The notes under the pieces were generated by a model. It ran no database searches, was not told the DNA's origin, and saw nothing but the letters and a program-made list of their open reading frames with translations. Below are positions 33,764 through 58,786 of a stretch of DNA of 64,000 nt, one piece after another. The stretch covers positions 160,001-224,000 of the forward strand of contig JAIPGM010000001.1 of NCBI GenBank assembly GCA_021735655.1, in the 5' to 3' direction. Made by a program: the position numbers and the translations under genes. The first letter of the stretch is position 1. Every line of letters begins with the position of its first letter. The stretch is from Candidatus Omnitrophota bacterium (GTDB lineage: Bacteria > Omnitrophota > Gorgyraeia > Duberdicusellales > 4484-171).

Positions 33764-33791
33764 AACGATAAGTTAAGATTGAACAATAAAG

Positions 33792-34886: not shown

Positions 34887-34901
34887 CTTTTTAATTTTAA
34901 T

Positions 34902-35867: not shown

Positions 35868-35873
35868 TAGACT

Positions 35874-38293: not shown

Positions 38294-39076
38294 ATGAAGT
38301 TTAGAAAAAGAATAAAAAATGTATTTTTCCATAAATCCATTTTGTGGGAGATGTCGATTAAGCAGCTTAAGGCAAAGTATTCTGGTTCTATGTTGGGTAT
38401 TTGGTGGGCAGTGGCGACCCCTCTTATTCTGGCTGTAAGTATTAATTTTATTTTTACTAATGTATTTAAGGTGGGTATTGAAAATTTTACCTTTTTTGTT
38501 TTATCAGGGATAGTCCCTTGGCTATTGTTCTCTAATGCTATAAACGAAGCCGCCGGGTCTTTTATTGCCAATTTTTCGGTATTAAGGCAGGCCATTTTTC
38601 CTCGAGAGTTTGTTCCAATGACTTCGATTATCTCTAATTTTTTAATTTTTCTGATCGGTTTATTGATTCTGCTTCCTTTTTTTATTGTTTCTAATCCGAG
38701 GGTAATTACGGTTTTGCCGTTTCTGTTGGTAGTTTTATTTTTTTATTTATTTTTTCTTGTCGGGCTTGCTATGATTTTTTCATCTTTAAATGTTTTCTTT
38801 CGTGATGTATCCCATCTTTTAGCTATCGGGTTAATGGTTTGGTTTTGGGTTACGCCTATTTTTTACTCTTTGGATATGTTACCGGCTTCATTTCGCTGGA
38901 TCTGCTTAAGTAATCCAGTTACTTACTATGTAGTTTCTTATAGATTAATTTTGTTTGAAGCGAAGCCGTTATCCCTTCCAATTTTGTTAACTTTATTTTT
39001 TATTTCCTTTACGTCATTCATCGTTGGTTATGCCTTTTTCCTTAAAAATGAAAATAGTTTATTAAAACGAGTATGA
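38294..39076 (+). CDS. ABC-2 type polysaccharide/polyol-phosphate exporter permease (Wzm/TagG/KpsM-like)
   Basis: 260-aa six-helix membrane protein with ABC-2 family layout. The next gene starts 4 nt before its stop (translational coupling). Confidence 0.7.
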   Translation: MKFRKRIKNVFFHKSILWEMSIKQLKAKYSGSMLGIWWAVATPLILAVSINFIFTNVFKVGIENFTFFVLSGIVPWLLFSNAINEAAGSFIANFSVLRQAIFPREFVPMTSIISNFLIFLIGLLILLPFFIVSNPRVITVLPFLLVVLFFYLFFLVGLAMIFSSLNVFFRDVSHLLAIGLMVWFWVTPIFYSLDMLPASFRWICLSNPVTYYVVSYRLILFEAKPLSLPILLTLFFISFTSFIVGYAFFLKNENSLLKRV

Positions 39077-42000
39077 GGATAATAGAATTTAATAATGTTT
39101 GGGAGAAGTACCGGATTAAATTTGTAAGGGACAGGAAAGTTTCTTGGGAAGAAATTTGGGCTTTAAGCAATATAGACTTTACAGTTAATAAGGGTGAAGT
39201 TATAGGAATAATTGGTGAAAATGGTGCCGGAAAAACTACTTTATTAAAATTAATCGCTGGCATGTTTGCTCCGGATAGAGGAGATATATCTGTTCGAGGA
39301 AAGGTATCGGTATTGATGGAGCTAGGGGCTGGTTTTAATCCTGAGTTTACCGGGAGGGAAAATGTTATTCTTAATGCCCGTATCTACGGGTTAGATACAG
39401 ACATAGTTGAACAGCAAATGGAGAAAATCGTCGAATTTGCTGATATTGGTAAATTTATCGATGCCCCGGTTAAATATTATTCACAGGGCATGTATACCCG
39501 TTTAGCATTTGCTTTGGCTATATTTGTAGAGCCGGATATTCTTTTAATTGATGATATTCTATCGGTAGGCGATGCTGACGCACAAAAGAAATGTATTGAT
39601 AAAGTATTCAAGTTAAAGGAATCGGGAAAGACTATTATTTTAGTAAGTCATGACATGCATATGATAAGTAGGCTGTGCGATCGAGTTATCCTTTTGGATA
39701 AAGGTAAACTTATCGACAGAGGTAATCCCGCTGAGATTATCTATCATTACCTAGAGACTGTTGGGGATAAAAGTGGTATTGCAGTTTTAGAAAAGGATAA
39801 ATTAAGATTAGTATTTAATAATGGGAGAATTACTTTTAGCTACGCAGGAGTGCCCCTTACTAAAGAATTTGGTGGTTATGTGGCTTATTTTGTTTCTTCC
39901 CTTGGTAGTTGGCTTTCTTCTTTTGATTTATTCTGGAAGATAAGCCATTTTTCAGCTAATAAAATTGTTGCTGAGGGAGAATATAAAGGTAGAGGGCCTT
40001 CTCAGGTTTGGGTTTTGGAATTTTCTGAAAGCAGATTATGTTGGCAGGTGAAGATAAAAGACAAAGATGTAAGAGATCCGCATATAGATTTATTGCTTAA
40101 CCCTCAATATAAAAAATGGTTAAATTTAGACCAAGGCGGGGGTTTTCCTTCCTTTATTTCTAAATCTACTTGGCAGAATTTGGGTTTAGCTAATTTTCCC
40201 CAAGCTATGGTCGGTTTAACCGCAGACTTGGAAGTTAAGAGTTGTCCTTCTTTTGTTTTGACCGCAGAGGATAAGGATACTCAGATTAGACTTTTCAATA
40301 CAGGTTATGACCAGGAAGGACGCATTATTCAGTTGGATTTAAAGTTAGCCGGAGACAATCTATTTTTTCTTAAAATATTTCCTGAGAAAAATATATTTGA
40401 AGAGTATATTAAAAAAGAGAAAGATATATTTGAAGAGAGCATTAAAAAAGTAAACCAGCAACTAGCTTTAGAGAAAGAAGCGCAACAGGTCAGATTGCGG
40501 GATTTATCAACTTTTGCTTGGGGCAATTTTAGTCTTTTTGCTGATAAGGAGGAAAAGTCTTTAAAGCTATACTTTAAGAATAAAGAAGTCACCAAAAAAG
40601 AAGGATTCCATATATCTTTTTTGATCAATAATATCTGGTACGATACTACTTCTGCGGATTGGCAGATAACTAAAGAAAAGGAAGTTTTCATAATTAAACT
40701 ATTTTGGAAAGTGTTTGATTTTAAACAAACTTGGAAATTTTCAGTTAAGAATGGGGGGCTTCTTTGGAATTTAAATTCCATCGTAAAGAAAACCTTCAAT
40801 CCAGAGATTATGAAAATCGGTTTACTATTAATAAGTGAGTACAAAACTTTCTTTTGCGGTTATCAGCAGGAAGATTTTCCAGATAAATTCAGCTCTTGGC
40901 AGGATATGTCTCTCAAAGACCCGAAAGCAAGATGTTTTGGTTTAAGAAAACAAACATCGTTACCGGCGATTGCTTTAGATAACAATGAAAGTTTTGATTG
41001 TATTGTACAGAACAGCGATGAAGAAAATTCCTGTCGGGTACTACAGCTAAGCCTTCCCAGGCAAAGTTTTATTCAAAAAAATACATCTTTTGGTGTTCAA
41101 CTTAGCCTGCTTGAAGAGGAAAGTCCCATTGATCATTACCTTAAACAAGAAAGACAGGACCATTTACTTAGGCAACAAGAAGCAAAAAGATTGCTTAGCG
41201 CTAAAAGTACTATATCAAAAGATAATTTTCGTTTTTTTGTTGATAAGGAAGAAAAATCTTTAAGGATATACTTTAAGGACAAAGAGATTACTAAAGGGGC
41301 CGGTCTACATAGTTCATTATGCGTTTTCGGGAAGTGGTTTCATAGGGAGGAAACTAGGTGGCAGACAAAAAAGATTTCCGATGAAGAAGTAGTTTTAATT
41401 TTAAGTTATGACTCACTACCGCTTTTACAAATTTTTTCTCTTAGTTTCAAAAGAAAGGGTATTCTAAGAGTTAAAGTCGAAATGGAAATAAGCGAGCAGA
41501 TTCATTTGTCTGATCATCATCTGAAGCTTGAGCTTCAAGATGACTATAATAATTGGGATACTGGCTATGAGCAAGGCAATTTTTTTATTGATCGATATGT
41601 GGATGAGATCGGTCCGATTAGACTAAAAGATAATAGAATTTCGAATATACTATTGAGATCAAACAATGAAAGTAAAATTCCAAAAATGCTTTTGAAAATT
41701 ATTTCCCAAATTGATAGACGAATTATAAACCTTTATAAGCGAAGAAGTGAAGATGGAGAATGCGTTGGCCTTTGCTCTCCTTTGATTGTATCTAAAAAAG
41801 AAGAACTGGTTAAACCTGGAAAGTATACTTATTTCGAAGGAGAAATCATATTTGGAAAAGAAGCTAAATTAGAAAGAGAAGCTTCTAGGGTAGATATTGT
41901 CGAGCTTAAAAAAGATGATATAAGATTTGTTTTTGATCGTGGCAGAGTTAAAATTTTCTGGAAGGAAGAAGAGTTAACTTCGGAATTAGGAATTTATACC

Positions 42001-42540
42001 TCATTGCGTTCAAAAGGAATCTGGCAGGATTCTTACCAGGCAGCTTGGGAAATAGAGCATAAAGCTAAGGAAAAAATTGTGGCAACTGGAGGTTGGCCTT
42101 ACCTTCCCATTTCTCAAACATGGAAATTAGAGTTGCTCGGCAAGAATTCAATATCTTGGCAAGTTGACATGGAGATTTACGGTGAAGTTAATTTAGAGAT
42201 AGAACAGGCTAGTGTAATGATTTCTTCTAAATACAGGAATTGGGAAATTCCCAGTTTTAACAGCGGTAAATTTCTTGATGTCTATGTTAAGAATCACGAT
42301 ATTCTACCTTTTAGATTTTGGTCTGGGGATGCAAACAAGATAGCTGCTGTTTCAGAATGTTTTCCCTCGATAATTTTTAAAAGCGAAAGACAAGATAAAG
42401 AAATGCAGGCGGTTATAGAAAATACAGGTATTTTATATAGGGCAAGGTTGTTGCAGTATCAAAGTACAAGTAATAATGCAATTTTGCCAGGTAAATATCC
42501 ATACTTTAGGGGGATGATAGAAATTGAGACTAGGAAGTAA
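39073..42540 (+). CDS. ABC-2 exporter ATP-binding protein (Wzt/TagH-like) with a ~900-aa C-terminal extension made of four copies of a ~115-aa domain
   Basis: Walker A GENGAGKTTLLKLIAG, signature YSQGMYTRLAFA, Walker B ILLIDDILSVGD in aa 1-230, then repeats (next feature entries). Confidence 0.8.
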   Translation: MRIIEFNNVWEKYRIKFVRDRKVSWEEIWALSNIDFTVNKGEVIGIIGENGAGKTTLLKLIAGMFAPDRGDISVRGKVSVLMELGAGFNPEFTGRENVILNARIYGLDTDIVEQQMEKIVEFADIGKFIDAPVKYYSQGMYTRLAFALAIFVEPDILLIDDILSVGDADAQKKCIDKVFKLKESGKTIILVSHDMHMISRLCDRVILLDKGKLIDRGNPAEIIYHYLETVGDKSGIAVLEKDKLRLVFNNGRITFSYAGVPLTKEFGGYVAYFVSSLGSWLSSFDLFWKISHFSANKIVAEGEYKGRGPSQVWVLEFSESRLCWQVKIKDKDVRDPHIDLLLNPQYKKWLNLDQGGGFPSFISKSTWQNLGLANFPQAMVGLTADLEVKSCPSFVLTAEDKDTQIRLFNTGYDQEGRIIQLDLKLAGDNLFFLKIFPEKNIFEEYIKKEKDIFEESIKKVNQQLALEKEAQQVRLRDLSTFAWGNFSLFADKEEKSLKLYFKNKEVTKKEGFHISFLINNIWYDTTSADWQITKEKEVFIIKLFWKVFDFKQTWKFSVKNGGLLWNLNSIVKKTFNPEIMKIGLLLISEYKTFFCGYQQEDFPDKFSSWQDMSLKDPKARCFGLRKQTSLPAIALDNNESFDCIVQNSDEENSCRVLQLSLPRQSFIQKNTSFGVQLSLLEEESPIDHYLKQERQDHLLRQQEAKRLLSAKSTISKDNFRFFVDKEEKSLRIYFKDKEITKGAGLHSSLCVFGKWFHREETRWQTKKISDEEVVLILSYDSLPLLQIFSLSFKRKGILRVKVEMEISEQIHLSDHHLKLELQDDYNNWDTGYEQGNFFIDRYVDEIGPIRLKDNRISNILLRSNNESKIPKMLLKIISQIDRRIINLYKRRSEDGECVGLCSPLIVSKKEELVKPGKYTYFEGEIIFGKEAKLEREASRVDIVELKKDDIRFVFDRGRVKIFWKEEELTSELGIYTSLRSKGIWQDSYQAAWEIEHKAKEKIVATGGWPYLPISQTWKLELLGKNSISWQVDMEIYGEVNLEIEQASVMISSKYRNWEIPSFNSGKFLDVYVKNHDILPFRFWSGDANKIAAVSECFPSIIFKSERQDKEMQAVIENTGILYRARLLQYQSTSNNAILPGKYPYFRGMIEIETRK
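39787..40146 (+). repeat. Wzt C-terminal repeat domain, copy 1
   Basis: LRLVFNNGRITFSYAGVPLTKEFGGYVAYFVSSLGSWLSSFDLFWKI...QVWVLEFSESRLCWQVKIKD shares the [LI]-x-[FY]...G...W..S...W.I...Q.W...W.V pattern with the other copies. Confidence 0.6.
40525..40872 (+). repeat. Wzt C-terminal repeat domain, copy 2
   Basis: DKEEKSLKLYFKNKEVTKKEGFHISFLINNIWYDTTSADWQITKEKE...KQTWKFSVKNGGLLWNLNS. Confidence 0.6.
41224..41592 (+). repeat. Wzt C-terminal repeat domain, copy 3
   Basis: DKEEKSLRIYFKDKEITKGAGLHSSLCVFGKWFHREETRWQTKK..., nearly identical opening to copy 2. Confidence 0.6.
41899..42267 (+). repeat. Wzt C-terminal repeat domain, copy 4
   Basis: IRFVFDRGRVKIFWKEEELTSELGIYTSLRSKGIWQDSYQAAWEIEHK...LPISQTWKLELLGKNSISWQVDMEIYGE. 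Confidence 0.6.
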
Positions 42541-44890
42541 TTATCAAAAGTTTCGAAATCATCTAAGCGCGGGGGGTTTGATTTATGCTGTCTATAGAGG
42601 TATAAAATATTTTATTTATTTGCCGCAGAGGAGAAATTGTAAGCGTAAACAAAAACAAATAATGCTTATTAACGGCAAGCTAAGAATAGATTATTTGGAT
42701 AAAGGGATTGGCATGTCTTGGAATAATTCCCCAATTACCGAAAATGTACACTTTAATGTCGGGCTTAATACTTTAGGATTATGGACAGATTCTTCAAAGG
42801 CTCATTGGCAAATTATGGATCAAGGAGAAGATTATCTCAAGGTCAAGGTAATTTTCCAGGAGTTACCTTTGAGCCAGAATTGGCTAATAAAGTTAGAGGG
42901 CGACCACCAAATATACTGGAAGATAGATTTAGAAATAGAAGAGCATCTTCATATTGATGAATTCCGGATGGTTTGCGGAGTTAACCGTAAGTATAAAACT
43001 TGGATTAATAGCTTTCAGGAGAAAGTTTTTCCCCGGCTTAATCAATATTGGCAAGATTTATGTCTAGATAATGTTTTTACTTCTTTTGTGGGAGTAAGGT
43101 TTCCTACTGGAAACACTCTCTTGCCTTCATTGGTATTTGAATCTTGCGATGATAGCAGAGTTTTTTCCCCCCTTGTTCAAAATACCCCTTTAGATATTAA
43201 TACCCATATTATAGGATTTAGAAAGATTAATCACGAAGATGAAAGGGATTATCCGCCGGGTTGTTATCAGCTTTTTGCTGGCAGAATAAAATTATACGAA
43301 GACAATTATCTGTTAGATAAGAAAATAGAAGATGTGCGTCAAGATTACTTTAAGTCTACAATGAAACGAGTAAGTGCTATTTCCGAAGCCAAAGAATTAA
43401 AAGTTATGCTAGTAAATCTACCTTGGCAGAATAACGGGGTAGGGGGAGTAAGGGCTGGCTCTCGTTGGCCGCACATGAAAGATTTAAGCGAAGGAAATTA
43501 CTTACCATTTCCTTTTTTTCTTGCTTACGCCACCTCTCTTTTAGAAAAAAACGGTATCAAGGCTGACTTAGTTGATGCTATCGCAGAATGTTTATCCGAA
43601 GATAAGTTTATCGAGCGGCTTTTAGGAGCTAATTGTAATGTTTTAGTTGTTGAGACCTCTGTGCCTTCATTTTACCATGATCTGCAGCTATTAAGGAAGT
43701 TATCAAATTTTGGTTTTACAATAATTTTATGCGGTCCAAATTCTGAAATTTATAAATTTGAATTTTTAAAAGAAAATAGATTCATTAATTATGTTTTATT
43801 CGGAGAATATGAATTTACGCTTTTGGAATTGACGAAGATTATTTCTAAGGGCAAAAAAGATCTTACTTTTGTAAAAGGCCTTATTTGGAGAGATGAAAAA
43901 GGTAATATTATTAAGAATCATCCTCGGGAGCCTTTTGATATAAATTGTTTACCTTGGCCTCACAGGGATAAGCTTCCGATGGAAAAATATTGGGATTTAC
44001 CTGGTGATATTCCTCATCCTTCGGTTCAAATAGTTGCCTCGCGGGGTTGTCCTTTTGGTTGCAGTTTTTGCCTTTGGCCTCAGATTCTTTTTGGCGGAAA
44101 GACCTATAGAGTGAGGGACGTAACTGATTGCATTGATGAAATGGAGTACTTAGTAAGAGAAAAAGGCTTTAAATCAGTCTATTTCGATGATGATACTTTT
44201 AATGTCGGAAAAGCTAGGATGCTTGATTTTTGCAATGAGATTATAAAGAGAAAGCTAGATAATGTCCCCTGGGCAATTATGGCTAAAGCCGACCTTATGG
44301 ATGAGGAGATTTTAGATAAGATGAAGGAGGCTGGGTTACATGCGGTAAAGTATGGAGTAGAGAGTGCTTCGCAAGAGTTAGTGGATAGGTGTGGAAAATG
44401 TCTAGACCTTAAAAAAGCAGAGCAGATGATTAAATATAGCCAACATTTAGGCATAAAGGTTCATTTGACTTTTTCCTTTGGTCTTCCTGGAGAAACTAAG
44501 GAGACAATTAAAAAAACAGTTGATTATGCTTTAAAATTAGATCCACAGTCAGTTCAATTTTCAATTATTACACCTTTTCCAGGCACAACTCTTTTTGAAG
44601 AGCTAGATAAAAAGGAAAAAATTCTTACTAAGAATTGGTCTTTGTATGATGGTCATTATAGTTGTGTTTTCCAGCCGGATAACCTTTCTTTGGGAGATTT
44701 AGAAGAATCAAAACAACATGCTTACAGGTTGTGGCTAGATTATCAAAGGAAAAAAAGAGGATTGCTGGGTGATCTAAAAAGGTTCTATAATTATGCACAA
44801 AAAGATGGTTTAGGCAATGCAGTTAAGAAGACTAAAGATTACTTGAATTATTCTATTTTTCATAGAAAGAAGTTTATCGGTAAGATATGA
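42524..44890 (+). CDS. B12-binding radical SAM enzyme with an N-terminal Wzt-C-like ~115-aa domain
   Basis: N-terminal domain (nt ~42663-43030) IDYLDKGIGMSWNNSPITENVHFNVGLNTLGLWTDSSKAHWQIM...LPLSQNWLIKLEGDHQIYWKIDLEIEE parallels Wzt repeat 4. The radical-SAM cluster is SRGCPFGCSFC (nt ~44044-44075). B12-binding-like region precedes it. Confidence 0.75.
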   Translation: MRLGSNYQKFRNHLSAGGLIYAVYRGIKYFIYLPQRRNCKRKQKQIMLINGKLRIDYLDKGIGMSWNNSPITENVHFNVGLNTLGLWTDSSKAHWQIMDQGEDYLKVKVIFQELPLSQNWLIKLEGDHQIYWKIDLEIEEHLHIDEFRMVCGVNRKYKTWINSFQEKVFPRLNQYWQDLCLDNVFTSFVGVRFPTGNTLLPSLVFESCDDSRVFSPLVQNTPLDINTHIIGFRKINHEDERDYPPGCYQLFAGRIKLYEDNYLLDKKIEDVRQDYFKSTMKRVSAISEAKELKVMLVNLPWQNNGVGGVRAGSRWPHMKDLSEGNYLPFPFFLAYATSLLEKNGIKADLVDAIAECLSEDKFIERLLGANCNVLVVETSVPSFYHDLQLLRKLSNFGFTIILCGPNSEIYKFEFLKENRFINYVLFGEYEFTLLELTKIISKGKKDLTFVKGLIWRDEKGNIIKNHPREPFDINCLPWPHRDKLPMEKYWDLPGDIPHPSVQIVASRGCPFGCSFCLWPQILFGGKTYRVRDVTDCIDEMEYLVREKGFKSVYFDDDTFNVGKARMLDFCNEIIKRKLDNVPWAIMAKADLMDEEILDKMKEAGLHAVKYGVESASQELVDRCGKCLDLKKAEQMIKYSQHLGIKVHLTFSFGLPGETKETIKKTVDYALKLDPQSVQFSIITPFPGTTLFEELDKKEKILTKNWSLYDGHYSCVFQPDNLSLGDLEESKQHAYRLWLDYQRKKRGLLGDLKRFYNYAQKDGLGNAVKKTKDYLNYSIFHRKKFIGKI

Positions 44891-47800
44891 AGAATTATCT
44901 AGTCACCTGGGATAAAATATGTAAGGGTATAACTAAGCAAAAGAAGATATTTTGTGGCCCACACACTGTCCAAATAGATTTAACCGACAAATGCAATAGT
45001 AGCTGCGTTGCTTGTTGGATTCACTCACCTTTAGTTGAGGAAAAAAAATCATTTCCAGAAGGCAAAAAACAACTTTCTTTCGAATTAGTTAAAAGTTTGA
45101 TTAATGATTTGTCTGATTTAGGAACTCAGGAGGTAATTTTATCCGGATCAGGGGAGCCATTTTTATATCCAGAAATAAAAGAGGTTATAAAAAATATAAA
45201 GTCAAAAAATATGTATCTAAATATAATTACCAATGCTTCTCTTATCGATGAGGAAATGGCAGAGCTGTTAGTAAAATGCAAAGTCGATTTAATTACTGCC
45301 AGCATATGGGCCGGTGATGCTGAAACTTACAGCTTAACTCATCCAGGAAAAAGCGAAGCTGATTTCGAAAAAATAAAGAGTAACTTAAAGAAATTGGCTT
45401 TTTATAAGAAGCGGTATGGTTCATTGGAGCCGCATTTAAAATTATATAATGTAATTTGCAGTAAAAATTATAGAAATATTGAGGAAATGGTTGATTTTGC
45501 TAAATCAATGGATGCCGATTCTTTAGAGTTTCAGGTTGTTGATATAATTTCTGGGAAAACAGATCATTTGGCCCTGAAAGATGCCTATAAGAGCGAGATA
45601 GTAAATCAATTGGACAATATAAGAAAGCGAAAAGATTTAATATCTTTTAATACGCCTAAAGAAATGCCGATAGATAGTTTTATTGATGAGGAATTTTTTG
45701 ATTTTGGAAAGATTTGGAAAAATTACAAAAACGGCTTTTGCGTTTCTCAGTGTAGCAGTTCTTTGGTTTGCAAAAAAGATCACGAGATAAAAGATAAGAG
45801 AATTATTGTTTCAGAGTCGACATCAACCAGAGGGACTCGTCCGGTTGCATTTTGGTATAAATTTGAAAATAATATATGTAAAACTTGCGAGGAAAATATT
45901 GAGTGCGTTGACGATGAAAATGCAGTGAGCATAAAATTGTTGAATATGTTGGGTATTGGTTCATTTTTGAGGAGATTATTGCGCTCTGATTTAGAGAGAG
46001 GGATATATGAAAAGCAAATAAATAGCATCCCATGTTATATAGGGTGGTATTATTCTCGTATTTTAGCTAATGGTGATGTTATCCCTTGTTGCAAGGCAGG
46101 TAAGTTATCTTTAGGTAATATTAAGAAAAGAACTTTTTCTAAAATTTGGCATTCCTATCGATATAAAAAGTTTCGGCTTAACGCTAAGAATTTAACTAAG
46201 CATCATAAGTATTTTTCTAACATCAATTGCATCAAGAGTTGCGATAATTGGGGAGTAAATTTAGAAATCGACGGGAGATTGAAGGAATTTGAAAATAAAG
46301 AGAAAAAAAAGGAGCCTTACCTTTTAACTATCAAGAATAGCATTATAAAGGGTAGGGTTGAGGATACGCTTGCAAAAATTACTCGTAATATTAAACCGAA
46401 TAATTTAAAAAAGAGATATTCAGAAATTTTAGGTGTATTTGATGGTGAACATGGTTATAAAGGTCCATTCCACGTTCAGATAGACTTGACTAATGATTGC
46501 AATAACACTTGCATTGCTTGTTGGTGCAATTCACCTCTTTTGAAAGAGAAACGATTATCGGCTGATAAAAAAAATCAATATTTACCTTTAGGAATGGTAA
46601 AGGAATTATTGGATGAGATTACTAATATGGGTGCTACTGAGGTCTATTATTCAGGAAGTGGTGAACCATTTATGCATCCAGCGATTATGGAGATTCTCGA
46701 TTATTCAAAAAAGAAAGGTTTAATCTGTCACGTAAATACTAATTTTACTCTTCTTAATCAAGAAAAGATAGATTGCTTAATCGATATGGAGGTTGACCAT
46801 CTTACGGTGAGTGTTTGGGCGGCTACGGCCGAAACTTATGCAAAAACTCATCCTAATAAAACCGAGGCTGACTTTCAACGGATAAAAGAGAATTTACTAT
46901 ATCTGAACTTACGAAAGAAAAGTAAGCCCTGTATAAAAATTTATAACGTTATTTTTAACATGAATTACCTTGAAGTTGAGAAGATGCTTGATTTTGCCGT
47001 TGAGACTAAATCTGAATCTTTAGAATTTACCCTTGTAGATACTATGCCTGGGGCTACTGATATGCTTGCTTTAAATCAAGGACAGTTGGATGAGCTTAAT
47101 GATTTATGCAGGAAAATAAAATTAAAATTAGATAAAAATTACATAATTAGGAGTAAAAAGGTATTGCTTTTTCAGTTTGAGCAGTTTTTGAGAAGGATTT
47201 CTGTTTCTCAAGATGTCCAGGAGGCAAAATACGATAGAGGTGTTATTGATAGTATGCCTTGTTATATTGGTTGGCTTTTTGCACGAATAATTCCTAACGG
47301 GGAAGTTCATTCTTGTCTTAAGGCGCATAGAATTCCGACCGGTTCTTTGTATAAAGATAGATTTTTCGAAATTTGGAATAGTGCTAAACAGGCACATTTT
47401 CGTAAAAAGACTTTAGTTTGCAGAAAAGATGATCCTTTCTTTAGGTTGATTGGCAACGATCCCAATACAAAGGAGGCCGGTTGTTACAAGAGTTGCGATG
47501 ATATCGGGAGGAACACTTGGATGCATAACAAGATGAATATGTTGACGCCACTGGGAAGGCTGACACTTAAGTACGTAGCTAAAGCCATGAAGCCTCTAAG
47601 GAGGCTTAGGTCCAAAAACGATAATTTTAAGAATTACCACAGTGACCCTTTAATTGCCGGGGTCATCCATGGCCGGAAGGCTTTTTTGGGACCCGAACAA
47701 GTAGTAATTGATCCGACCAATAAGTGTAATTTGCAATGCATTTCTTGTTGGATGTATTCGCCATTATTGAAAAAAAATAAACCAGCTTTGGATTTATTGA

Positions 47801-48741
47801 AACAAGAATTATCTAAAGAGGTACTTATTAAATTAATCGATGATTTAGCTGATTTAGGAACAAAGCGTATTAGGTTCACTGGTGGCGGAGAGCCTTTTAT
47901 GCATAAAGATTTGATGACAGTAATAGAGCATGCCCGAAAAAAGAATATTTTAGTTGCGGTAACTACGAACTTTGGTTTGGTCTCTAGACAGGATATTCTT
48001 AGATTGTGTGATTTGGGATTGGAGGAGTTATGCATAAGCATTTGGGGTTCTTCATCGAGAGTCTACAATTTGGTTCATCCTGGTACCGGTGAGGATTATT
48101 TTAAGAAATTAAAAGAAAATCTTTCTTATTTGAAAGGGCTAAATAAGTATAAACCGCGGACTACCTTTGCTAATGTAATCATGAATAATAATTTCACTGA
48201 TTTTGAAGCAATGTATGATTTTGCTTTAGATCATGGAGCTGATGCAGCCTATTTTACCTTGGTTGATATTATTTCCGGTCAAACCGATAAGTTCTTGTTG
48301 AATAAAGATGAACGAAGCGAATTGCTAAAGAGAGCTCTTATGGTTCAGCAACGAAATAAAGATAACAAGCTGCAGCTTGAATTTTTTGAGAATTTTCTAA
48401 AAAGAGTATCTAGTTTCCAAGGAGACTTTGAAAAAGGAGAATATGATAAATCGAGCATTGATCAATTGCCTTGTTATGCCGGCTGGATTTTTTCAAGAGT
48501 TTTGGCAGACGGAAGCGTTGCGCCCTGCTGCCGGGGGGTTAAAAAAATAATCGGCAACATCAAGACTAAATCTTTTAAAGATATTTGGTTTTCGCCCGAA
48601 TACAATGAGTTTAGAGTTAAAGCAAAGTATTTATCGAAAAGCAACGCTTACTTTAAGGATATAGGCTGTATAAAAGAATGTGATAATTTGATGCATAATC
48701 AGGAGTTTCATAAAAGAATAAATCTAAAAGAAGGAGGTTGA
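44887..48741 (+). CDS. Triple-module radical SAM / SPASM-domain protein (three tandem radical-SAM + Cys-rich auxiliary-cluster units in one 1284-aa polypeptide)
   Basis: Three C-x3-C-x2-C cores: DKCNSSCVACW (nt ~44991-45015), NDCNNTCIACW (~46498-46524), NKCNLQCISCW (~47722-47750). Each is followed by SGSGEPF/TGGGEPF and a C-terminal PCY[IA]GW...CC...GC[IY]K[SE]CD SPASM/twitch-like Cys cluster. Confidence 0.8.
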   Translation: MKNYLVTWDKICKGITKQKKIFCGPHTVQIDLTDKCNSSCVACWIHSPLVEEKKSFPEGKKQLSFELVKSLINDLSDLGTQEVILSGSGEPFLYPEIKEVIKNIKSKNMYLNIITNASLIDEEMAELLVKCKVDLITASIWAGDAETYSLTHPGKSEADFEKIKSNLKKLAFYKKRYGSLEPHLKLYNVICSKNYRNIEEMVDFAKSMDADSLEFQVVDIISGKTDHLALKDAYKSEIVNQLDNIRKRKDLISFNTPKEMPIDSFIDEEFFDFGKIWKNYKNGFCVSQCSSSLVCKKDHEIKDKRIIVSESTSTRGTRPVAFWYKFENNICKTCEENIECVDDENAVSIKLLNMLGIGSFLRRLLRSDLERGIYEKQINSIPCYIGWYYSRILANGDVIPCCKAGKLSLGNIKKRTFSKIWHSYRYKKFRLNAKNLTKHHKYFSNINCIKSCDNWGVNLEIDGRLKEFENKEKKKEPYLLTIKNSIIKGRVEDTLAKITRNIKPNNLKKRYSEILGVFDGEHGYKGPFHVQIDLTNDCNNTCIACWCNSPLLKEKRLSADKKNQYLPLGMVKELLDEITNMGATEVYYSGSGEPFMHPAIMEILDYSKKKGLICHVNTNFTLLNQEKIDCLIDMEVDHLTVSVWAATAETYAKTHPNKTEADFQRIKENLLYLNLRKKSKPCIKIYNVIFNMNYLEVEKMLDFAVETKSESLEFTLVDTMPGATDMLALNQGQLDELNDLCRKIKLKLDKNYIIRSKKVLLFQFEQFLRRISVSQDVQEAKYDRGVIDSMPCYIGWLFARIIPNGEVHSCLKAHRIPTGSLYKDRFFEIWNSAKQAHFRKKTLVCRKDDPFFRLIGNDPNTKEAGCYKSCDDIGRNTWMHNKMNMLTPLGRLTLKYVAKAMKPLRRLRSKNDNFKNYHSDPLIAGVIHGRKAFLGPEQVVIDPTNKCNLQCISCWMYSPLLKKNKPALDLLKQELSKEVLIKLIDDLADLGTKRIRFTGGGEPFMHKDLMTVIEHARKKNILVAVTTNFGLVSRQDILRLCDLGLEELCISIWGSSSRVYNLVHPGTGEDYFKKLKENLSYLKGLNKYKPRTTFANVIMNNNFTDFEAMYDFALDHGADAAYFTLVDIISGQTDKFLLNKDERSELLKRALMVQQRNKDNKLQLEFFENFLKRVSSFQGDFEKGEYDKSSIDQLPCYAGWIFSRVLADGSVAPCCRGVKKIIGNIKTKSFKDIWFSPEYNEFRVKAKYLSKSNAYFKDIGCIKECDNLMHNQEFHKRINLKEGG

Positions 48742-48747
48742 AGTTAA

Positions 48748-49566
48748 TTGAATATGGCGGGTAAAGTGGGTGCTATCGATTTTCAATTATTTTTAAGAAA
48801 AATCAGCCTTGAGCGTTTTTTTCAAAGTTTTTATTATTTTAAATGGTTGGAATACCCTTTAGTCTACAATAACCTTGAACTAAAAGCAGGTGAACAGTAT
48901 CTCGATATCGGTAGTGGAAAGTCCATTTTTCCTCTATTTGTCGTAGCGAAAAATAACTGTAACGTGCACGTATTTGATGATCAGTCCATTATAAAAGACA
49001 GTATTACTTATTATCAGAGCAATATTAGAAAGATGGGGTTATGCAATATTTCTGGAAAAAATTTCTTGATTCACGAAGCTACAGAGAAAGGACAGCTCGA
49101 TTTTCCTGATAATTACTTTGATAGAGTTTCTTGTATTTCGGTATTAGAGCATATTAAGGGCAATGGTGATAGTGTAATGATGCAGGAAATATCAAGAATT
49201 TTAAAAAAAGGCGGGAGGGCTGTGATAACTTTTCCGTTTAATGGCAAGGATTATATAGAAGAAGATAACCCAGAAGGGGTAGGATATTTCCAGCGGAAGT
49301 ATAGTGTAGCGGCGATTAAAGAGCGGATAATTGATCCAGCCAATTTAAAGGTTAAGAAGGTTATATATTTTGGAGAACGTTATATAAGTTTTGGGGAACA
49401 ATACTTGCAGAATAAATTTAGAAAAATAAATTGGCTCATACCTTTATTCGCGCCTATTTTATGGAGGGTGTGCCATTATTATGAAGGTGAATATCGCAAT
49501 TTTTATGAGCGAGCAATAGATAAAAAAGGTACTGGCGTAGCGTGTATTGTTTTTGATAAGATTTGA
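48748..49566 (+). CDS. Class I SAM-dependent methyltransferase (Methyltransf_11-like)
   Basis: YLDIGSGKSIFPLFVVAKNNCNVHVFD (motif I and the acidic residue at the end of beta-2). Strong RBS AAGGAGG at 48731-48737 before the TTG start. Confidence 0.7.
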   Translation: MNMAGKVGAIDFQLFLRKISLERFFQSFYYFKWLEYPLVYNNLELKAGEQYLDIGSGKSIFPLFVVAKNNCNVHVFDDQSIIKDSITYYQSNIRKMGLCNISGKNFLIHEATEKGQLDFPDNYFDRVSCISVLEHIKGNGDSVMMQEISRILKKGGRAVITFPFNGKDYIEEDNPEGVGYFQRKYSVAAIKERIIDPANLKVKKVIYFGERYISFGEQYLQNKFRKINWLIPLFAPILWRVCHYYEGEYRNFYERAIDKKGTGVACIVFDKI

Positions 49567-49591
49567 ATAAGCAAAATTGTGAAAATTTAAG

Positions 49592-50464
49592 ATGCTGACT
49601 TTTCCTAAATATCTTTCAATCCAAACTACTTCTCTATGCAATGCTTCTTGTGTATTTTGTCCCTATAAAGATATAAAAGATGTAAGGTTCAAGACAATAA
49701 TGGATAGAGGCCTTTATGAAAAAGTTATTAATGAATGCAGTAACCATAAAGATATTGAATGCATTATAGTTTACATGAATAACGAGCCCTTAACTGATCC
49801 TTGCATAGTTGAGAGAATAAATTATGCCAAAGATAAAGTTCCTTGGGCTAGTGTGCATATCTTGACCAATGGAGCCTTACTTAGCGATGACCTGGCTGAT
49901 AAACTTATTGATTCTCGTCTAGACTGGATCGGGGTAAGCTTTCATGGGATCAGAAAAGAAACTATAGAGCGGGCAATGGGCATTCCTTATGAGATCAGCT
50001 TGAAGAGAATAACCAATTTTATCGAAAAAGCAAAAGCGAAGAAAAATATAAAGAACTATTTTATGCTAACTTTTTTGCGCCATGTATATTTGACTCCTCA
50101 AGAGCGGGAAGAGGCTATTAGTTTTTGGAGAAAACTGGGGATAGAAAGAATAAGCTATTTTGACGGGCCCATATCTCGGGCCAGCAATGTAACTAATTTA
50201 CCAAAAGTCTACCATCAAGGCAAGATCAGTGGATGTAATTCTATCTGGGCTGATGAGATGCTTCATGTGGTAGAGGATGGTAAGGTTATTTTGTGCTGCA
50301 TGGATTGGCGAAGAGAAGTAATTTTAGGCGACCTAAACAAACAAAGCATCCATGAAATATGGAATGGCAAAAGAAGAAAGATTTGGGATATGATTCGTGG
50401 AACAGGAGAGGTTCCTGAAGGATTTTTGTGCCGCAGGTGCGAAGAGGCTAAGCAAGAGATTTAA
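49592..50464 (+). CDS. Radical SAM / SPASM-domain protein (single module, 290 aa)
   Basis: TTSLCNASCVFCPY (C-x3-C-x2-C, nt ~49631-49665). C-terminal CCMDW...GFLCRRCEE Cys cluster. Confidence 0.7.
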   Translation: MLTFPKYLSIQTTSLCNASCVFCPYKDIKDVRFKTIMDRGLYEKVINECSNHKDIECIIVYMNNEPLTDPCIVERINYAKDKVPWASVHILTNGALLSDDLADKLIDSRLDWIGVSFHGIRKETIERAMGIPYEISLKRITNFIEKAKAKKNIKNYFMLTFLRHVYLTPQEREEAISFWRKLGIERISYFDGPISRASNVTNLPKVYHQGKISGCNSIWADEMLHVVEDGKVILCCMDWRREVILGDLNKQSIHEIWNGKRRKIWDMIRGTGEVPEGFLCRRCEEAKQEI

Positions 50465-50467
50465 AGG

Positions 50468-52636
50468 ATGCTCATGAAAAATGAAAATTGCGAATTAATT
50501 TTTGTAATGACTCCGCCTTGGCAGACAAAGATGCCGCCTTTAGGCTTGGCCTATTTAGCCAGTTTTTTGAAGTCAAACAATATTAACGTAGATGTCATAG
50601 ATTTGAATGTGGATCTTTTTAATAATGCTCAAGAATGCCATAAATATTTTTGGGATATAGAAACAATAAGTAATTTTGGTTCGCTTCGGATTGCCCAAGA
50701 TTTTATTAAGGCATTCAATAAAGAACTTGAAAATTTTGTTGATCGAATCTGTAGTCATCCTGCAAAGTTGGTCGGTTTTTCTACTACGGTAGCTAGTATA
50801 AATATCGCCACCTACCTTACTCATCGGATAAAATCAAAAGATCCTTCGAAAATAATTATTTTAGGCGGGCCAGGATGTTTTTTGGATACTTGCAATATAG
50901 ATCCTGAAAGGGTGGTAGATATTTTTGTCATTGGCGACGGAGAGCTGCCTTTATTGGATATAGTTAAAAGATTTAAAGATAAACAGTCTTTGTCTGATTT
51001 GTTGGAGGTTCCTGGGACAATAATTTGTCTAGATAAGAAATATCATGACTTTTCACCGGCGAATCCTGTTAAGCAGATAAACGATATTCCTTTTCCTACT
51101 TTTTCGGAGTTCGAGCTGGATGAATACCATAAAGAACATGTTTACAAACCAATTCCAATTATTACCAGCAGAGGCTGTATAAATAAATGCAGTTTTTGCG
51201 TAGACCATAAGCTCAGTAATCCTTTTAGATTTCGAAATCCGCACAAAATATTTGAAGAGATAAAATACCATGTAGAAAATAATTGTAAAAAAGAGTTTGA
51301 GTATAACGATCTACTATGTAATGGAAATTTAAAGCAATTGGAGCAGCTTTGCGACCTGATCATTGAAAGCGGCCTGTCTATAAAATGGACAAGCTATGCG
51401 GCCATAAGGAAAGGTATGAGTTTAGAGTTATTTCAGAAGATGCAGAAGGCGGGATGCAGATTTTTATGTTATGGTATGGAGTCAGCTTCAGATTTAGTTT
51501 TAGATAAGATGAATAAAAGATATAATTCTCATACGGCAGAGGATGTTATTAGAAAAACCCATTCCTCAGGTATCGAGACAGGAATCAACATTATAGTTGG
51601 CCACCCCGGTGAGTCGAATAAAGAATTTAACCAAACTTATAGATTTATCAAAAGAAACAAAGACTACATTGATCAAATCACAAACCTGTCTACTTGTTTT
51701 TTAATACCGACTTCGGATTTAGCTGAGAATATGAGCAATTTCGGTATTTATTTTTATTCTCCTTTGAAAAGGATGCCAAAATTCTTATTTCGAAATAAAG
51801 AGCTTGAGCCTAATTATGAAAATTTCTGCGCCTATCCTCATAATACTCCTGCGATTAGAGCAAAACGAGCCAGAAAAATTATAACTCTTGCTTCAAAGAT
51901 AGCTATACCGATTACTATTTTGAACTATCAAAAGCAGCACGATATGGGTATGGGGGATTTTCTAGTCCAAACTCAAGAAGCGGAAAAAGTTTTTCGTTGT
52001 AAGAAGTTAAAGATAGACTTTAGTCAAAAAGGAAGCGGTAGGTTATATTATGACAATAAGGCCTTAACTAAAGACGTAGGCCTAAATGCTTCCTTTCATG
52101 CCAATGGGCGATGGTTTGATTCTTCTTCGGCAAAGTGTCGGGTAGCCAGATCCAACAGAGGCTTGGAAATAAGAATGAGTTGGCCGGAGATTTCTTTGTT
52201 TCAATGCTGGACGATAAAAACAGAAGGTGATTCTTCTGTCGAATGGCGGGTAAAAACAGAGTTTAAAAGGTCTTTGGAGCTATCTCAATATAAGATCGGC
52301 ATTATCTTGTCACAGGAATACGATAGTTGCCAAGTTAATGGTGAAGAACACCGATTCTCCGATAATTTTACCGAGAACTGGGAGGAAGCATTGTTTTTGA
52401 AGCTTGATTCGATAAGCATCGGCTCTAAGGGATTTTTACCGATGATGACCCTGAAGGAAGAATCCAAGGGTGGTGTGTTCGTGCAGGTCCATAATACCCC
52501 GCTTCACTTGCATACTCGAATGATTAATTTTTGCCGTTTTGGCGAGAACCTTAAAGATGACCACAGCACTGAATCTTTATTGATCAAAAAAGGTGATGTT
52601 TGGAAAAATAAGCTAAAAATAAAATTAAAGGTTTAA
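50468..52636 (+). CDS. B12-binding radical SAM enzyme with a C-terminal Wzt-C-like domain
   Basis: B12-domain start IFVMTPPWQTKMPPLGLAYLASFL. Radical-SAM cluster TSRGCINKCSFC (nt ~51171-51206). C-terminal domain (nt ~52001-52400) GRLYYDNKALTKDVGLNASFHANGRWFDSSSAKCRVA...ISLFQCWTIKTEGDSSVEWRVKTE matches the Wzt repeat pattern. Confidence 0.75.
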   Translation: MLMKNENCELIFVMTPPWQTKMPPLGLAYLASFLKSNNINVDVIDLNVDLFNNAQECHKYFWDIETISNFGSLRIAQDFIKAFNKELENFVDRICSHPAKLVGFSTTVASINIATYLTHRIKSKDPSKIIILGGPGCFLDTCNIDPERVVDIFVIGDGELPLLDIVKRFKDKQSLSDLLEVPGTIICLDKKYHDFSPANPVKQINDIPFPTFSEFELDEYHKEHVYKPIPIITSRGCINKCSFCVDHKLSNPFRFRNPHKIFEEIKYHVENNCKKEFEYNDLLCNGNLKQLEQLCDLIIESGLSIKWTSYAAIRKGMSLELFQKMQKAGCRFLCYGMESASDLVLDKMNKRYNSHTAEDVIRKTHSSGIETGINIIVGHPGESNKEFNQTYRFIKRNKDYIDQITNLSTCFLIPTSDLAENMSNFGIYFYSPLKRMPKFLFRNKELEPNYENFCAYPHNTPAIRAKRARKIITLASKIAIPITILNYQKQHDMGMGDFLVQTQEAEKVFRCKKLKIDFSQKGSGRLYYDNKALTKDVGLNASFHANGRWFDSSSAKCRVARSNRGLEIRMSWPEISLFQCWTIKTEGDSSVEWRVKTEFKRSLELSQYKIGIILSQEYDSCQVNGEEHRFSDNFTENWEEALFLKLDSISIGSKGFLPMMTLKEESKGGVFVQVHNTPLHLHTRMINFCRFGENLKDDHSTESLLIKKGDVWKNKLKIKLKV

Positions 52637-52646
52637 AAATTTACAT

Positions 52647-55600
52647 ATGAATCTAACAGATAAAATTTTATTAGTGGGTCTTGCTCCTTGGGGAGTAGAT
52701 ACGCCACCCCTAGCCTTAGCTTGTTTAAGTACCTCTTTGAGGAATGCAAATATTAGCACTGAAGTATTTGATATGAATATTGAGCTTTACAATGCCGTTA
52801 ATGAGCAAAGTAAATATTTGTGGAGTATGAATTATTCTCATTGGTGGCGAGAGCCAGAAAGATATTCTGATATTAGAAAGGAATTAGATGTTTACATAGA
52901 ACCTTTAATAAAGAAAATTTTAAGTTTTAAGCATAAGATAGTTGGCTTTTCACTTTCTACTAATTGCTCTGACCTTTTGTTGGAGGAGATAGTAAAAAGA
53001 ATAAAAACTAGCGATCCCGATAAGGTAATAATTCTAGGTGGTGTTTCAATTTCAATAAATGAGCAGAGAAATGATTTAATTAGGAAGTTAAGGACGCAGA
53101 TAGATTACTGTGTGATTGGAGAAGGAGAAGAGGTACTTGTCGAATTGGTAAAGAAAATAGCTAGCAATAAGCTAGAAGATATAGGTCGATTGCCAGGCAT
53201 AATTAAGAAGGGTGAGTTTGAAGGAGTTAAACAGAGGGCAGAGATCAAAGATTTTAATTCGCTGCCATTTCCTACATTTGAAGAATTCAATTTAAAAAAA
53301 TATAAAGCACCCGTGAGCTTACCTATGGAATTTTCTCGTGGCTGCGTAGGTAGTTGTCCTTTCTGCGATTTTAAAAGCGTTTCTTCTGCCTTTAAGTCAA
53401 AAGCACCTTATTATATTATAAGCCAGATAAAATTCTATAAAGAAAAATACAATATTATTCATATGAGCCTATCTGACCCAGCAGTAAATGGAGATATTAG
53501 GGTTCTTGAGCAAATATGTGATTTATTAATCGAAGCTAACCTTTCTGTAAATATAAATTCTCTGGCAATTCCCCGCAAGGAAATGACCTTAGAACTATTA
53601 GAGAGAATGAAGAAAGCAGGTTTTTATCGTTTGGAGTATGGTCTAGAGAGCGGTTCGAATAAGATTCTCAAAGCAATGAGGAAAATATTTACTGTCGAAA
53701 TTGCCGAGAAAGTTATCCGAGATACTTATCAAGCAGGGATAAAAACATATCTCTATTTAATTGTGGGTTATCCACAGGAGACAGAGGATGATCTCAATCA
53801 GACCAAAGATTTTTTGAATAGAAACCGTCAGTATATTTCCATGATAAAGTCTATCAACCCTCTTTATGTAATGGCCGGTTCAGAGATATTTTGCAATCCC
53901 GATAAATATCAAGTCACATTACCGGCTAAAGATAGTGACAAGAGATGGTTTATTGGTGATAAGAATACATATTCTTTGCGAAAAGCCCGGATATTTGAAC
54001 TTAAAAAAGTAGTTGCTAGTTTAAATATTCCCTTTACCGAAGAGGCGGAATCTTTAGAGTTTACTGGAAACTCTTTAAATAAACAACAAGGAATCGTTGT
54101 AGGTGGAGGCAATCCATACGATAAAGATGAGTCAACTACAGAAAATAAAATTATGTCTAGAGGATATGCAGAACAAAAAACAGATAAATATAGAGATAGT
54201 TTTTTATTAATTAATTTGCCCCCTTGGGGTCAAGAAAATCCTCATATCGGAGTAGGCTATGTGTGTAGCTATCTTCGTCATAAAGGCTTTAAGCCATCGG
54301 TCTTAGACTTGAATAAGAAATTTTATTTGAGTCAGCCAAATTTTCAAATGCTCTGGCATGTAGAAAATAAAAACTTTTGGTCAAATCAAGATTCTTTTCC
54401 TTTGATTTTAAAATTATTTAAGAAGGAAATAGATAAGGCAATAAATGATATTTTGTCTTCAGGTTGCAGCCTATTAGGTTTCTCGGTAGTTGACCCTAAA
54501 GAAAAAATAACTATAGAGTTCATTAGGAGAATAAAACGTAGGGATAAAAGTAAAAAGATAATTTTAGGTGGTCCGGCAACTTCTACTTATGAGCAGAGAA
54601 AGATATTTTTGGATAATGTTGAGGAAGAGATAGATACTTTTGTGATCGGCGAAGGCGAGCAAACTTTGTTTAAGGTAGTAGACCGAATTTTAAAGAAAAA
54701 AGAGCTTAAAGGTATCGAGGGTTGTTGCAGCCGGGATAATGGTAAGTGGGTTTGTCGAGAAAGCGGTGAGATTGTTTCTTTAGATAAGATTCCTTTCCCG
54801 ACCTATGAGGAATTTGATTTGAGTCTATACGGTAAATCTTTCCTTGTTGAATGGTCAAGAGGCTGTAGGAGTAAATGCGCTTTTTGCAAAAATTATCGGC
54901 TTTTTTCTTCTTATCGGTCAAAGTCAGCTGAATCGGTTATGAAGGAATTGAGATATCATAAGCAAAAGTATAATGTAGATGAATTCACTGTAGTCGATAA
55001 TATTTTGAATGGTGATCTAAATACCTTGAATGATATTTGCGACAGGATAATAAAGGAAAATCTTCAAATTAGATGGACTGGGCAAATTGCCCCCCGCAAA
55101 GATATGAATTTTGAATATTTCCAAAAAATGAAGCAGGCCGGATGTTTTAAACTTCAAATTGGCCTTGAGTCTGGTTCGAACAAGGTGTTAAAGTTAATGC
55201 ATAAGAGCTTTACGGCAGAGATTTCTGAAAAAAATATAATTTTTGCTAAGAAAGCAGGCATTGAGACAGAAATTTTTACAATGATTGGTTTTCCCGGGGA
55301 GGCTGAGAAAGATTTTCAAGAAACTTACGATTTTATAAAAAGAAATGCAAAATATCTGGATACCATAAAATCGATAAACACCTTACATCTAATAGCCGGA
55401 ACTGAAATCTATGAGCAGAGAGAGCGTTTTAAAATAAAGCCTTTACCTCAAGAAAACTGGCATTATTTATGGGAAACTTATGAGGGAAATACATACAAGG
55501 TACGGGAAGAAAGAGCTAAGCGTATTCTAGGGTTAGCTTGCGATCTTAAGATTAAAGTTATGGAGACTAATATTATAGAGGGAAAAGAGCAAAAAGTTTT

Positions 55601-58785: not shown

Positions 58786-58786
58786 T

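Follow-up and report, generated by a model that had tools for sequence, protein, structure and literature searches.

A supersandwich-like domain recurring on a Wzt-type exporter ATPase and on radical-SAM enzymes of Candidatus Omnitrophota

Why would the ATPase of an exporter and two radical S-adenosylmethionine (radical-SAM) enzymes encoded next to it carry the same domain? This question is raised by a 64,000 nt stretch of a Candidatus Omnitrophota genome (assembly GCA_021735655.1, contig JAIPGM010000001.1, positions 160,001 to 224,000), in the following called the window. At 36986-58062 it harbours a run of plus-strand genes which overlap or lie a few bases apart; all features below are on the plus strand unless stated otherwise. 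Three products are central: a Wzt-like ATP-binding cassette (ABC) ATPase of 1155 aa (39073-42540), a radical-SAM protein of 788 aa (42524-44890, the 42524 protein) and a cobalamin (B12)-binding radical-SAM protein of 722 aa (50468-52636, the 50468 protein). An earlier inspection of the letters without database searches (the sequence-only reading) had noticed a recurrent unit in these proteins and related it to the carbohydrate-binding domain (CBD) at the C-terminus of Wzt. Our analysis leans, by somewhat more than an even chance, towards the following answer: the cluster would make a cell-surface glycan by the ABC-transporter route, and the recurrent domain, here termed R, would be a non-catalytic polymer-binding module common to the exporter and to tailoring enzymes.

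Six copies of one domain and their predicted fold

Six homologous copies are present, and they lie in the three proteins in which the sequence-only reading had seen them. BLASTP of the ATPase tail against the N-terminus of the 42524 protein and the C-terminus of the 50468 protein yields 45-72 bits. Each copy scored against a profile of the other five (leave-one-out) reaches 70-116 bits, with shuffled copies (500 shuffles per copy) at 15 bits or less. A hidden Markov model (HMM) of the family, built from 326 copies, recovers exactly six copies in a six-frame scan of the whole window with independent E-values of 6e-48 to 4e-72; the next match has an E-value of 0.5. The size of the unit had to be revised. 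R comprises ~205-220 aa, and the unit of ~115 aa described earlier corresponds to the N-terminal half of each copy. Identity between copies within one protein is only ~20%, and the six-copy alignment lacks any conserved stretch of 7-10 residues.

In the ATPase, R1 spans aa 236-439 (39778-40389; family HMM 151 bits, leave-one-out 70 bits), R2 aa 479-684 (40507-41124; family HMM 174 bits), R3 aa 713-932 (41209-41868; family HMM 173 bits, leave-one-out 87 bits) and R4 aa 943-1155 (41899-42537; family HMM 236 bits). R1 starts right behind the ATPase domain, which ends near aa 230, as the Wzt CBD does. Together with two helical linkers R1-R4 account for the entire 920 aa tail. According to DSSP on the full-length AlphaFold model, R1 and R2 are connected by a predicted single, Lys/Glu-rich helix of 40 residues (aa 439-478; 40387-40506), R2 and R3 by a predicted single helix of 28 residues (aa 684-711; 41122-41205). 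The junction of R3 and R4 is a short coil in this model and contains no helix. The linker helices are poorly conserved among orthologues (0.23 for the R1-R2 helix); in a Wzt dimer these charged helices could form coiled coils. The two remaining copies are found at the N-terminus of the 42524 protein (aa 46-261; 42659-43306) and at the C-terminus of the 50468 protein (aa 509-722; 51992-52633; family HMM 157 bits, leave-one-out 86 bits).

The R copy of the 42524 protein was modelled with AlphaFold at a predicted local distance difference test (pLDDT) of 89.9. It folds as a 17-strand galactose-mutarotase-like beta-supersandwich. Structural matches are aldose-1-epimerases, the supersandwich domains of glycoside hydrolase (GH) families GH2, GH36, GH38, GH97 and GH174, polysaccharide lyases, OpgG/OpgD and the P1 domain of YidC, and Foldseek on the same model gives the same picture. 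Most of these neighbours are carbohydrate-active proteins. Sequence identity to known galactose-mutarotase-like domains is 5-12%, and R is shorter than the aldose-1-epimerases (~210 aa versus ~340 aa). None of the six copies matches a Pfam family at E <= 10. In NCBIfam only the ATPase domain of the exporter protein is matched and nothing in its tail, while PDB sequence searches with profiles of 6 and 28 sequences return nothing meaningful, the sole match being a small heat-shock protein at E 0.31. R is an undescribed domain, modelled as a supersandwich and without sequence membership in any described family of that superfamily.

The full-length model of the ATPase has a pLDDT of 80 and a predicted template-modelling score (pTM) of 0.43. 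It comprises the ATPase domain at aa 1-229, an all-beta R1 at 236-436, R2 at 480-680, R3 at 713-927 and R4 at 943-1152; owing to the pTM of 0.43 the arrangement of these domains relative to each other is unreliable. Across the 326 copies the conserved positions are five Trp/Tyr as well as Thr, Ser, Gln, Asn and Arg. Numbered along the HMM, the residues conserved throughout the family are T28, W43, S46, W51, Q74, W76, Y113, W116, F125, N175 and R183. No His and no Asp/Glu is conserved in at least 75% of them. Such a pattern of aromatic and polar residues fits binding better than catalysis.

The ATPase domain (aa 1-233; 39073-39771; Pfam ABC_tran) is a true Wzt/TagH homologue. Compared with solved sequences using phmmer, it is closest to Wzt of Aquifex aeolicus (219 bits, E 7e-64), followed by TarH (189 bits), TagH and mycobacterial Wzt/RfbE. 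Foldseek pairs it with 6m96 (template-modelling score 0.85, 45% identity). The best NCBIfam models are those of TagH and Wzt, all below their equivalog cut-offs. Aligned to full-length Aquifex Wzt (8dku, 404 aa), the protein covers chain residues 20-236 only, i.e. the ATPase domain. Since the alignment stops where this domain ends, the Aquifex CBD is unmatched. Pfam Wzt_C (PF14524) is not matched by any copy at E <= 10, as follows already from the lack of any Pfam match, and a scan of the complete protein at a threshold of 0.01 does not hit it either. The CBDs known from Wzt are jelly-rolls that dimerise through a swap of C-terminal strands (PMC9445017). The proposed homology of the module to the C-terminal domain of Wzt did not hold up: Wzt_C is not matched, and a supersandwich is predicted instead of a jelly-roll, a fold unrelated to the beta-sandwich of Wzt-C. 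Homology of R to Wzt_C was rejected on the grounds of sequence and predicted fold. It is plausible that R is a functional analogue of the Wzt CBD rather than a homologue.

Distribution, neighbourhood and history of R

A word-indexed protein search with the six-copy alignment gave only one match. When 1.84 billion cluster representatives are searched exhaustively with a profile, the family amounts to 627 proteins at E <= 1e-3 and to 294 at E <= 1e-30. Among the best 150 matches, 87 consist of an ATPase domain followed by 1-7 copies of R; three copies are found in 41 ATPases, two in 19, four in 14 and five in 10. Many of the non-ATPase members among these 150 are fragments. Four tandem copies, earlier pointed out as unusual, are so in comparison with characterised Wzt proteins only. 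Within the R family two to five copies are the norm and up to seven occur. All members with a named source stem from Candidatus Omnitrophota. So far they are annotated as 'hypothetical protein', 'radical SAM protein' or 'polysaccharide/polyol phosphate transport ATPase'.

Further fusion partners of R are B12-radical-SAM enzymes, which carry it at either end, and radical-SAM/SPASM enzymes. Relatives of the 50468 protein are P0079 (identical to aa 3-722), P0134, in which a B12-radical-SAM enzyme is followed by two copies of R, and one protein in locus L003. Two proteins, P0017 (RKY36779.1, Candidatus Omnitrophota) and P0126, unite the ATPase, R copies and a radical-SAM/SPASM enzyme in a single chain, each confirmed by Pfam. 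Moreover R is fused to GT-C (PMT_2) membrane glycosyltransferases in seven cases and to one sulfatase with an N-terminal signal anchor, and it occurs on a membrane-anchored protein consisting of R only (P0138 and P0130 for the sulfatase and R-only cases). R should lie outside the cytoplasm in the GT-C and sulfatase fusions.

Related loci were collected with the R4-specific motif, one genome per species, which resulted in 26 loci, nearly all labelled Omnitrophota. The search used an alignment of orthologous R4 copies, and the set is consequently biased towards Wzt orthologues. All 26 loci have an R-encoding gene directly after the Wzt gene, usually overlapping with it. In most loci this gene is fused to an HpnJ-like class-B radical-SAM enzyme; a stand-alone R gene followed by an HpnJ-like radical-SAM gene is seen in L004, L008, L019 and L022, and in L013 the contig stops inside the R gene. 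The usual order is FAD oxidoreductase (FAD, flavin adenine dinucleotide), Wzm, Wzt with 2-6 R, R-B12-radical-SAM, further B12-radical-SAM, three SPASM radical-SAM modules and GT4. A WecA/MraY-type polyprenyl-phosphate sugar-phosphate transferase (PF00953) is encoded directly upstream in 5/26 loci. Other related loci contain genes for phosphomannomutase, DegT aminotransferase and GT2/GT4 enzymes. In L020 a divergent GT-C-R gene (4044-6314, minus strand) adjoins Wzm-Wzt, and GT-C homologues are situated at the cluster ends of L008 and L026. The sequence-only reading had assumed a functional link between the exporter ATPase and the radical-SAM enzymes through their common module. This assumption is supported by the synteny in 26/26 loci and by the P0017 and P0126 fusions; with fusions and synteny pointing the same way, the link is strongly supported.

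Orthologous ATPases are 38-48% identical, and the orthology of single copies was assigned by best-hit analysis. In 12/12 four-copy proteins each copy corresponds to the copy at the same position in the window. Three-copy proteins are R1-R3-R4 in 8/8 cases, the two-copy protein is R3-R4 and the six-copy protein R1-R2-R2-R2-R3-R4. The N-terminal copy borne by enzymes forms a group of its own in 21/22 cases. R4 is the most conserved of the four copies (0.49 among orthologues) and contains the ortholog-specific motif DILPFRFW. R2 is dropped in three-copy and multiplied in six-copy relatives. The strict orthology by position implies that the array is old, that each position is under its own selection and that R2 is the expandable unit.

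The gene cluster and its surroundings

The 42524 protein starts with a conserved leader of ~45 aa (42524-42658), recognised by the conservation of the motif NYQKFRxHLxxGGLxYAxxRGIKYFIFL in its orthologues. The motif, also given as NYQKFRxHLKxGGLxYAxWRGIKYFIFLxRK, precedes R in fused and stand-alone orthologues (L001-L026) and may form an amphipathic helix at the membrane or a helix used for docking. The HpnJ/BchE-like class-B radical-SAM catalytic region follows R at aa ~290-788 (43391-44890; Pfam Radical_SAM, CPFGCSFC motif in the translation). NCBIfam scores the protein with 236 bits for HpnJ (aa 296-737; family cut-off 577) and 156 bits for BchE, both below the cut-off. The alignment of the 42524 protein to HpnJ and BchE begins at aa 296, but the Pfam B12-binding model finds no match in this protein. 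In the 50468 protein the B12-binding and radical-SAM catalytic region occupies aa 1-500 (50468-51967; Pfam B12-binding E 7.8e-11, Radical_SAM; CINKCSFC motif). With a B12-binding domain and a CxxxCxxC core it would by sequence be a class-B (cobalamin-dependent) enzyme. Its nearest NCBIfam families, the PhpK P-methyltransferase and a C-methyltransferase of ribosomally synthesised and post-translationally modified peptides (RiPPs), score below cut-off.

A double B12-radical-SAM fusion of 1052 aa without R is encoded at 52647-55805 (Pfam B12-binding and Radical_SAM, twice each). Here as well P- and C-methyltransferases are the nearest curated families, below cut-off. The label 'probably C-methylating' given to the radical-SAM enzymes fits the 50468 and 52647 proteins and fails for the 42524 protein, the nearest family of which is HpnJ; all of these matches are sub-cut-off. 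The 52647 protein ends in a hydrophobic C-terminal tail (…WLILIFVSFYTFFYIIYFWVFMIF…) that resembles a membrane anchor.

Of the other cluster genes, the first encodes an FAD-dependent oxidoreductase similar to amine oxidases and uridine diphosphate (UDP)-galactopyranose mutase (36986-38293; Pfam Amino_oxidase and NAD_binding_8; NCBIfam PRK07208-like with a weak match to UDP-galactopyranose mutase). It is the conserved first cluster gene and is located upstream of Wzm in most related loci. The ABC-2 permease of Wzm type (38294-39076; Pfam ABC2_membrane E 4.9e-12) overlaps the start of the ATPase gene by 4 bp, and its position directly 5' of the ATPase gene is kept in related loci. A triple radical-SAM/SPASM fusion of 1284 aa is found at 44887-48741 (Pfam Radical_SAM and SPASM, three each). 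In many related genomes its three modules are separate genes for ~400 aa proteins, in others two- or three-module fusions, at the same position. A small radical-SAM/SPASM protein of 290 aa (49592-50464; Pfam) has homologues in several related loci. The cluster thereby contains eight radical-SAM modules, four with SPASM domains. Two glycosyltransferases of the GT4/GT1 family conclude it (55802-58062; Pfam Glycos_transf_1, Glyco_trans_1_4), and homologues of these two genes flank the cluster in most related loci.

Between the two SPASM genes lies the gene of a class-I SAM methyltransferase (48748-49566), the only one of this class in the window. All 26 related loci lack a homologue. The gene looks like an addition specific to this lineage, and its candidacy as a conserved chain terminator was rejected on account of its absence from 26/26 loci.

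Upstream the window is dominated by a giant ORF of 10,324 aa (64-31038), in which the family HMM detects no R module. It is followed at 31079-36842 by an Opp/Dpp-type ABC importer with SBP_bac_5, two permeases and two ATPases. Giant genes followed by genes for solute-binding proteins and importers have been published as an Omnitrophota pattern (bioRxiv 10.1101/2023.11.21.568195; PMC10066038), and the window matches it. Just 3' of the cluster a second pair of ABC ATPase and ABC-2 permease is encoded (58108-59590), the ATPase being tailless with 225 aa. Among the 23 ORFs of at least 150 aa only two are on the minus strand, a HemW-like radical-SAM gene (59598-60944) and a 171 aa ORF inside the Wzt gene (40329-40844), which is taken to be spurious. 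GC skew is positive throughout the window. The giant gene has a G+C content of ~0.41-0.43; in the cluster it falls to 0.34-0.36, and the AT skew flips its sign there.

What R may bind and how the system compares

We infer from sequence and models that R binds glycan, that this glycan is lipid-linked and is the substrate of the system, and that the radical-SAM enzymes act on it. Assembly on a lipid carrier and tailoring would both take place in the cytoplasm, and the Wzm/Wzt-type transporter would then export the polymer. R1-R4, spaced by long helices, would replace the single jelly-roll CBD of classical Wzt and, at the transporter, catch or inspect the completed chain. The fifth R on the HpnJ-like enzyme and the sixth on the B12-radical-SAM enzyme would bring both enzymes to the same chain. 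Possibly these enzymes also create the feature read by the exporter, which may be a terminal cap or the backbone. As the proteins with R belong to consecutive steps and are expected on either side of the membrane, the common thing they meet is presumably the substrate or exported product. Binding of the polymer is suggested by the fold from the carbohydrate world, the conservation pattern, the variable tandem arrays and the fusions across steps.

Alternatively R might bind other proteins. As a docking module the R of the enzymes would pair with the R of the ATPase tail and scaffold a tailoring complex, with the glycan being recognised elsewhere. Distinct paralogues kept by position, the long helical spacers between copies, the single chains of ATPase, R and radical-SAM enzyme and the R-bearing enzyme gene always directly downstream of, and usually overlapping, the ATPase gene would all agree with docking. 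Furthermore some proteins of the same fold are not sugar binders (YidC P1, PBCV-1 capsid protein). However, R on GT-C, on the sulfatase and on the membrane-anchored R-only protein is expected to be extracytoplasmic and cannot reach a cytoplasmic ATPase tail from there, and the structural neighbours are mostly carbohydrate-active. We therefore regard docking as unlikely, if still worth considering. Less probable again is a product other than a glycan, either a peptide modified by radical-SAM enzymes (RiPP) or else an unusual lipid or glycolipid, for which R would be a new substrate-recognition element in place of the RiPP recognition element (RRE) or PqqD. The eight radical-SAM modules with four SPASM domains point in this direction, and so do the nearest curated families, which include RiPP C-methyltransferases, sactipeptide and pyrroloquinoline quinone (PQQ) maturases and B12-radical-SAM enzymes of ladderane/hopanoid-type lipids; ABC-2 exporters moreover move lipids, too. 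No RRE domain was detected in a Pfam scan of the cluster proteins. Against such a product, the overlapping or closely spaced genes offer no space in which a precursor peptide could be encoded, the ATPase domain resembles Wzt and TagH most, the related clusters encode GT4, GT2, GT-C, a WecA-type transferase, phosphomannomutase and DegT aminotransferase, and the fold of R comes from the world of carbohydrate enzymes.

Finally R itself might be an enzyme acting on the sugar chain, akin to a mutarotase, epimerase, hydrolase or lyase. This is very improbable in our view. Aldose-1-epimerases as well as glycoside hydrolase and lyase domains are indeed among its top structural matches. Aldose-1-epimerases use a catalytic His and Glu, as exemplified by GalM of Lactococcus, but R has no conserved His, Asp or Glu in 326 copies. 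It is also far smaller than these epimerases, its copies in one protein have diverged to ~20% identity, and arrays of 1-7 tandem copies are typical of binding modules. A catalytic mutarotase role was rejected since the catalytic residues are not conserved.

Some observations speak against a polymer-binding R in a pathway for a surface glycan. Neither a priming transferase nor a sugar-nucleotide gene is present in the 64-kb window. Peptides are the usual substrates of SPASM radical-SAM enzymes. That the fold is not always sugar-binding is indicated by two of the structural matches, the P1 domain of YidC and a PBCV-1 capsid protein, and the conserved residues of R may be core rather than surface positions. 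In the GT-C fusions R is placed outside the cytoplasm by analogy to ArnT and PglB. Whether a cluster has R2 does not follow its enzyme content (L012 versus L015; L021 versus L002), an observation that speaks against each copy simply serving one mark. A one-to-one pairing of R copies with tailoring enzymes was rejected on this ground, R2 being independent of enzyme content.

Polymer binding by R allows for a further, rather speculative idea, to which we give a small chance only. The R tail may be a multi-site checkpoint or ruler in which R1, R3 and R4 read different features of a glycan heavily modified by radical-SAM enzymes, whereas the R2 copies and the rigid helices set the length of chain bound before the ATPase fires. 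The same reader family would then guide radical-SAM tailoring in the cytoplasm, export, and extracytoplasmic GT-C and sulfatase steps. If true, this would be a system of one reader and many enzymes throughout the phylum Omnitrophota, serving surface polysaccharides of a new, C-modified class.

Omnitrophota are ultra-small, possibly predatory bacteria, and we know of no cultured model in the phylum. ABC-transporter-dependent glycan export is understood from few proteobacterial systems and that of Aquifex, where one Wzt jelly-roll reads the terminal cap. To our knowledge radical-SAM enzymes are hardly known in surface-polysaccharide assembly. The type of pathway is already known. New, as far as sequence and models tell, would be the recognition module, its multiplicity, its sharing among exporter, radical-SAM, GT-C and sulfatase proteins, and a tailoring machinery rich in radical-SAM enzymes. 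A second, unrelated domain family occupies the position of the Wzt CBD, in arrays of up to seven. The analysis further provides a name and boundaries for a domain in hundreds of unannotated Omnitrophota proteins and ties about ten genes into one putative Omnitrophota pathway, while recombinant R modules may offer a handle for isolating the probably unusual surface polymer. In the literature we found no prior description of the R domain, of a Wzt with a mutarotase-like tail or of the cluster, and no report of an ABC ATPase or radical-SAM enzyme with a supersandwich fold. Nor is the cluster mentioned in the two papers on giant genes of Omnitrophota (bioRxiv 10.1101/2023.11.21.568195; PMC10066038).

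Among known systems the Wzt CBD of E. coli O9a, Raoultella terrigena and Aquifex aeolicus is the obvious counterpart. Like this domain, R is joined straight to the C-terminus of a Wzt-type ATPase with a Wzm partner, and by analogy its likely role is recognition of the polymer ahead of export. Stand-alone R proteins also recall a known CBD working in trans (PMC9445017). The differences are considerable. R has ~210 aa and a predicted 17-strand supersandwich, while the CBD is a strand-swapped jelly-roll dimer of ~150 aa; one to seven diverged tandem R with helical spacers contrast with a single domain; and R is found on tailoring enzymes as well.

For the enzymes, HpnJ is the best curated match to the catalytic region of the 42524 protein. 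By rearranging a sugar ring, HpnJ converts glucosamine to a cyclitol ether and is a precedent for radical-SAM chemistry on sugar. In contrast to HpnJ the 42524 protein has no hopanoid gene context, and it possesses a leader and an R module. With the WbdD chain terminators the proposed system would have in common that a cytoplasmic enzyme tailors the polymer and that export hinges on recognition of the finished chain (PMC9445017). WbdD is a kinase/class-I methyltransferase and has no domain in common with Wzt, whereas here the putative tailoring enzymes are radical-SAM proteins that carry the module of the exporter themselves.

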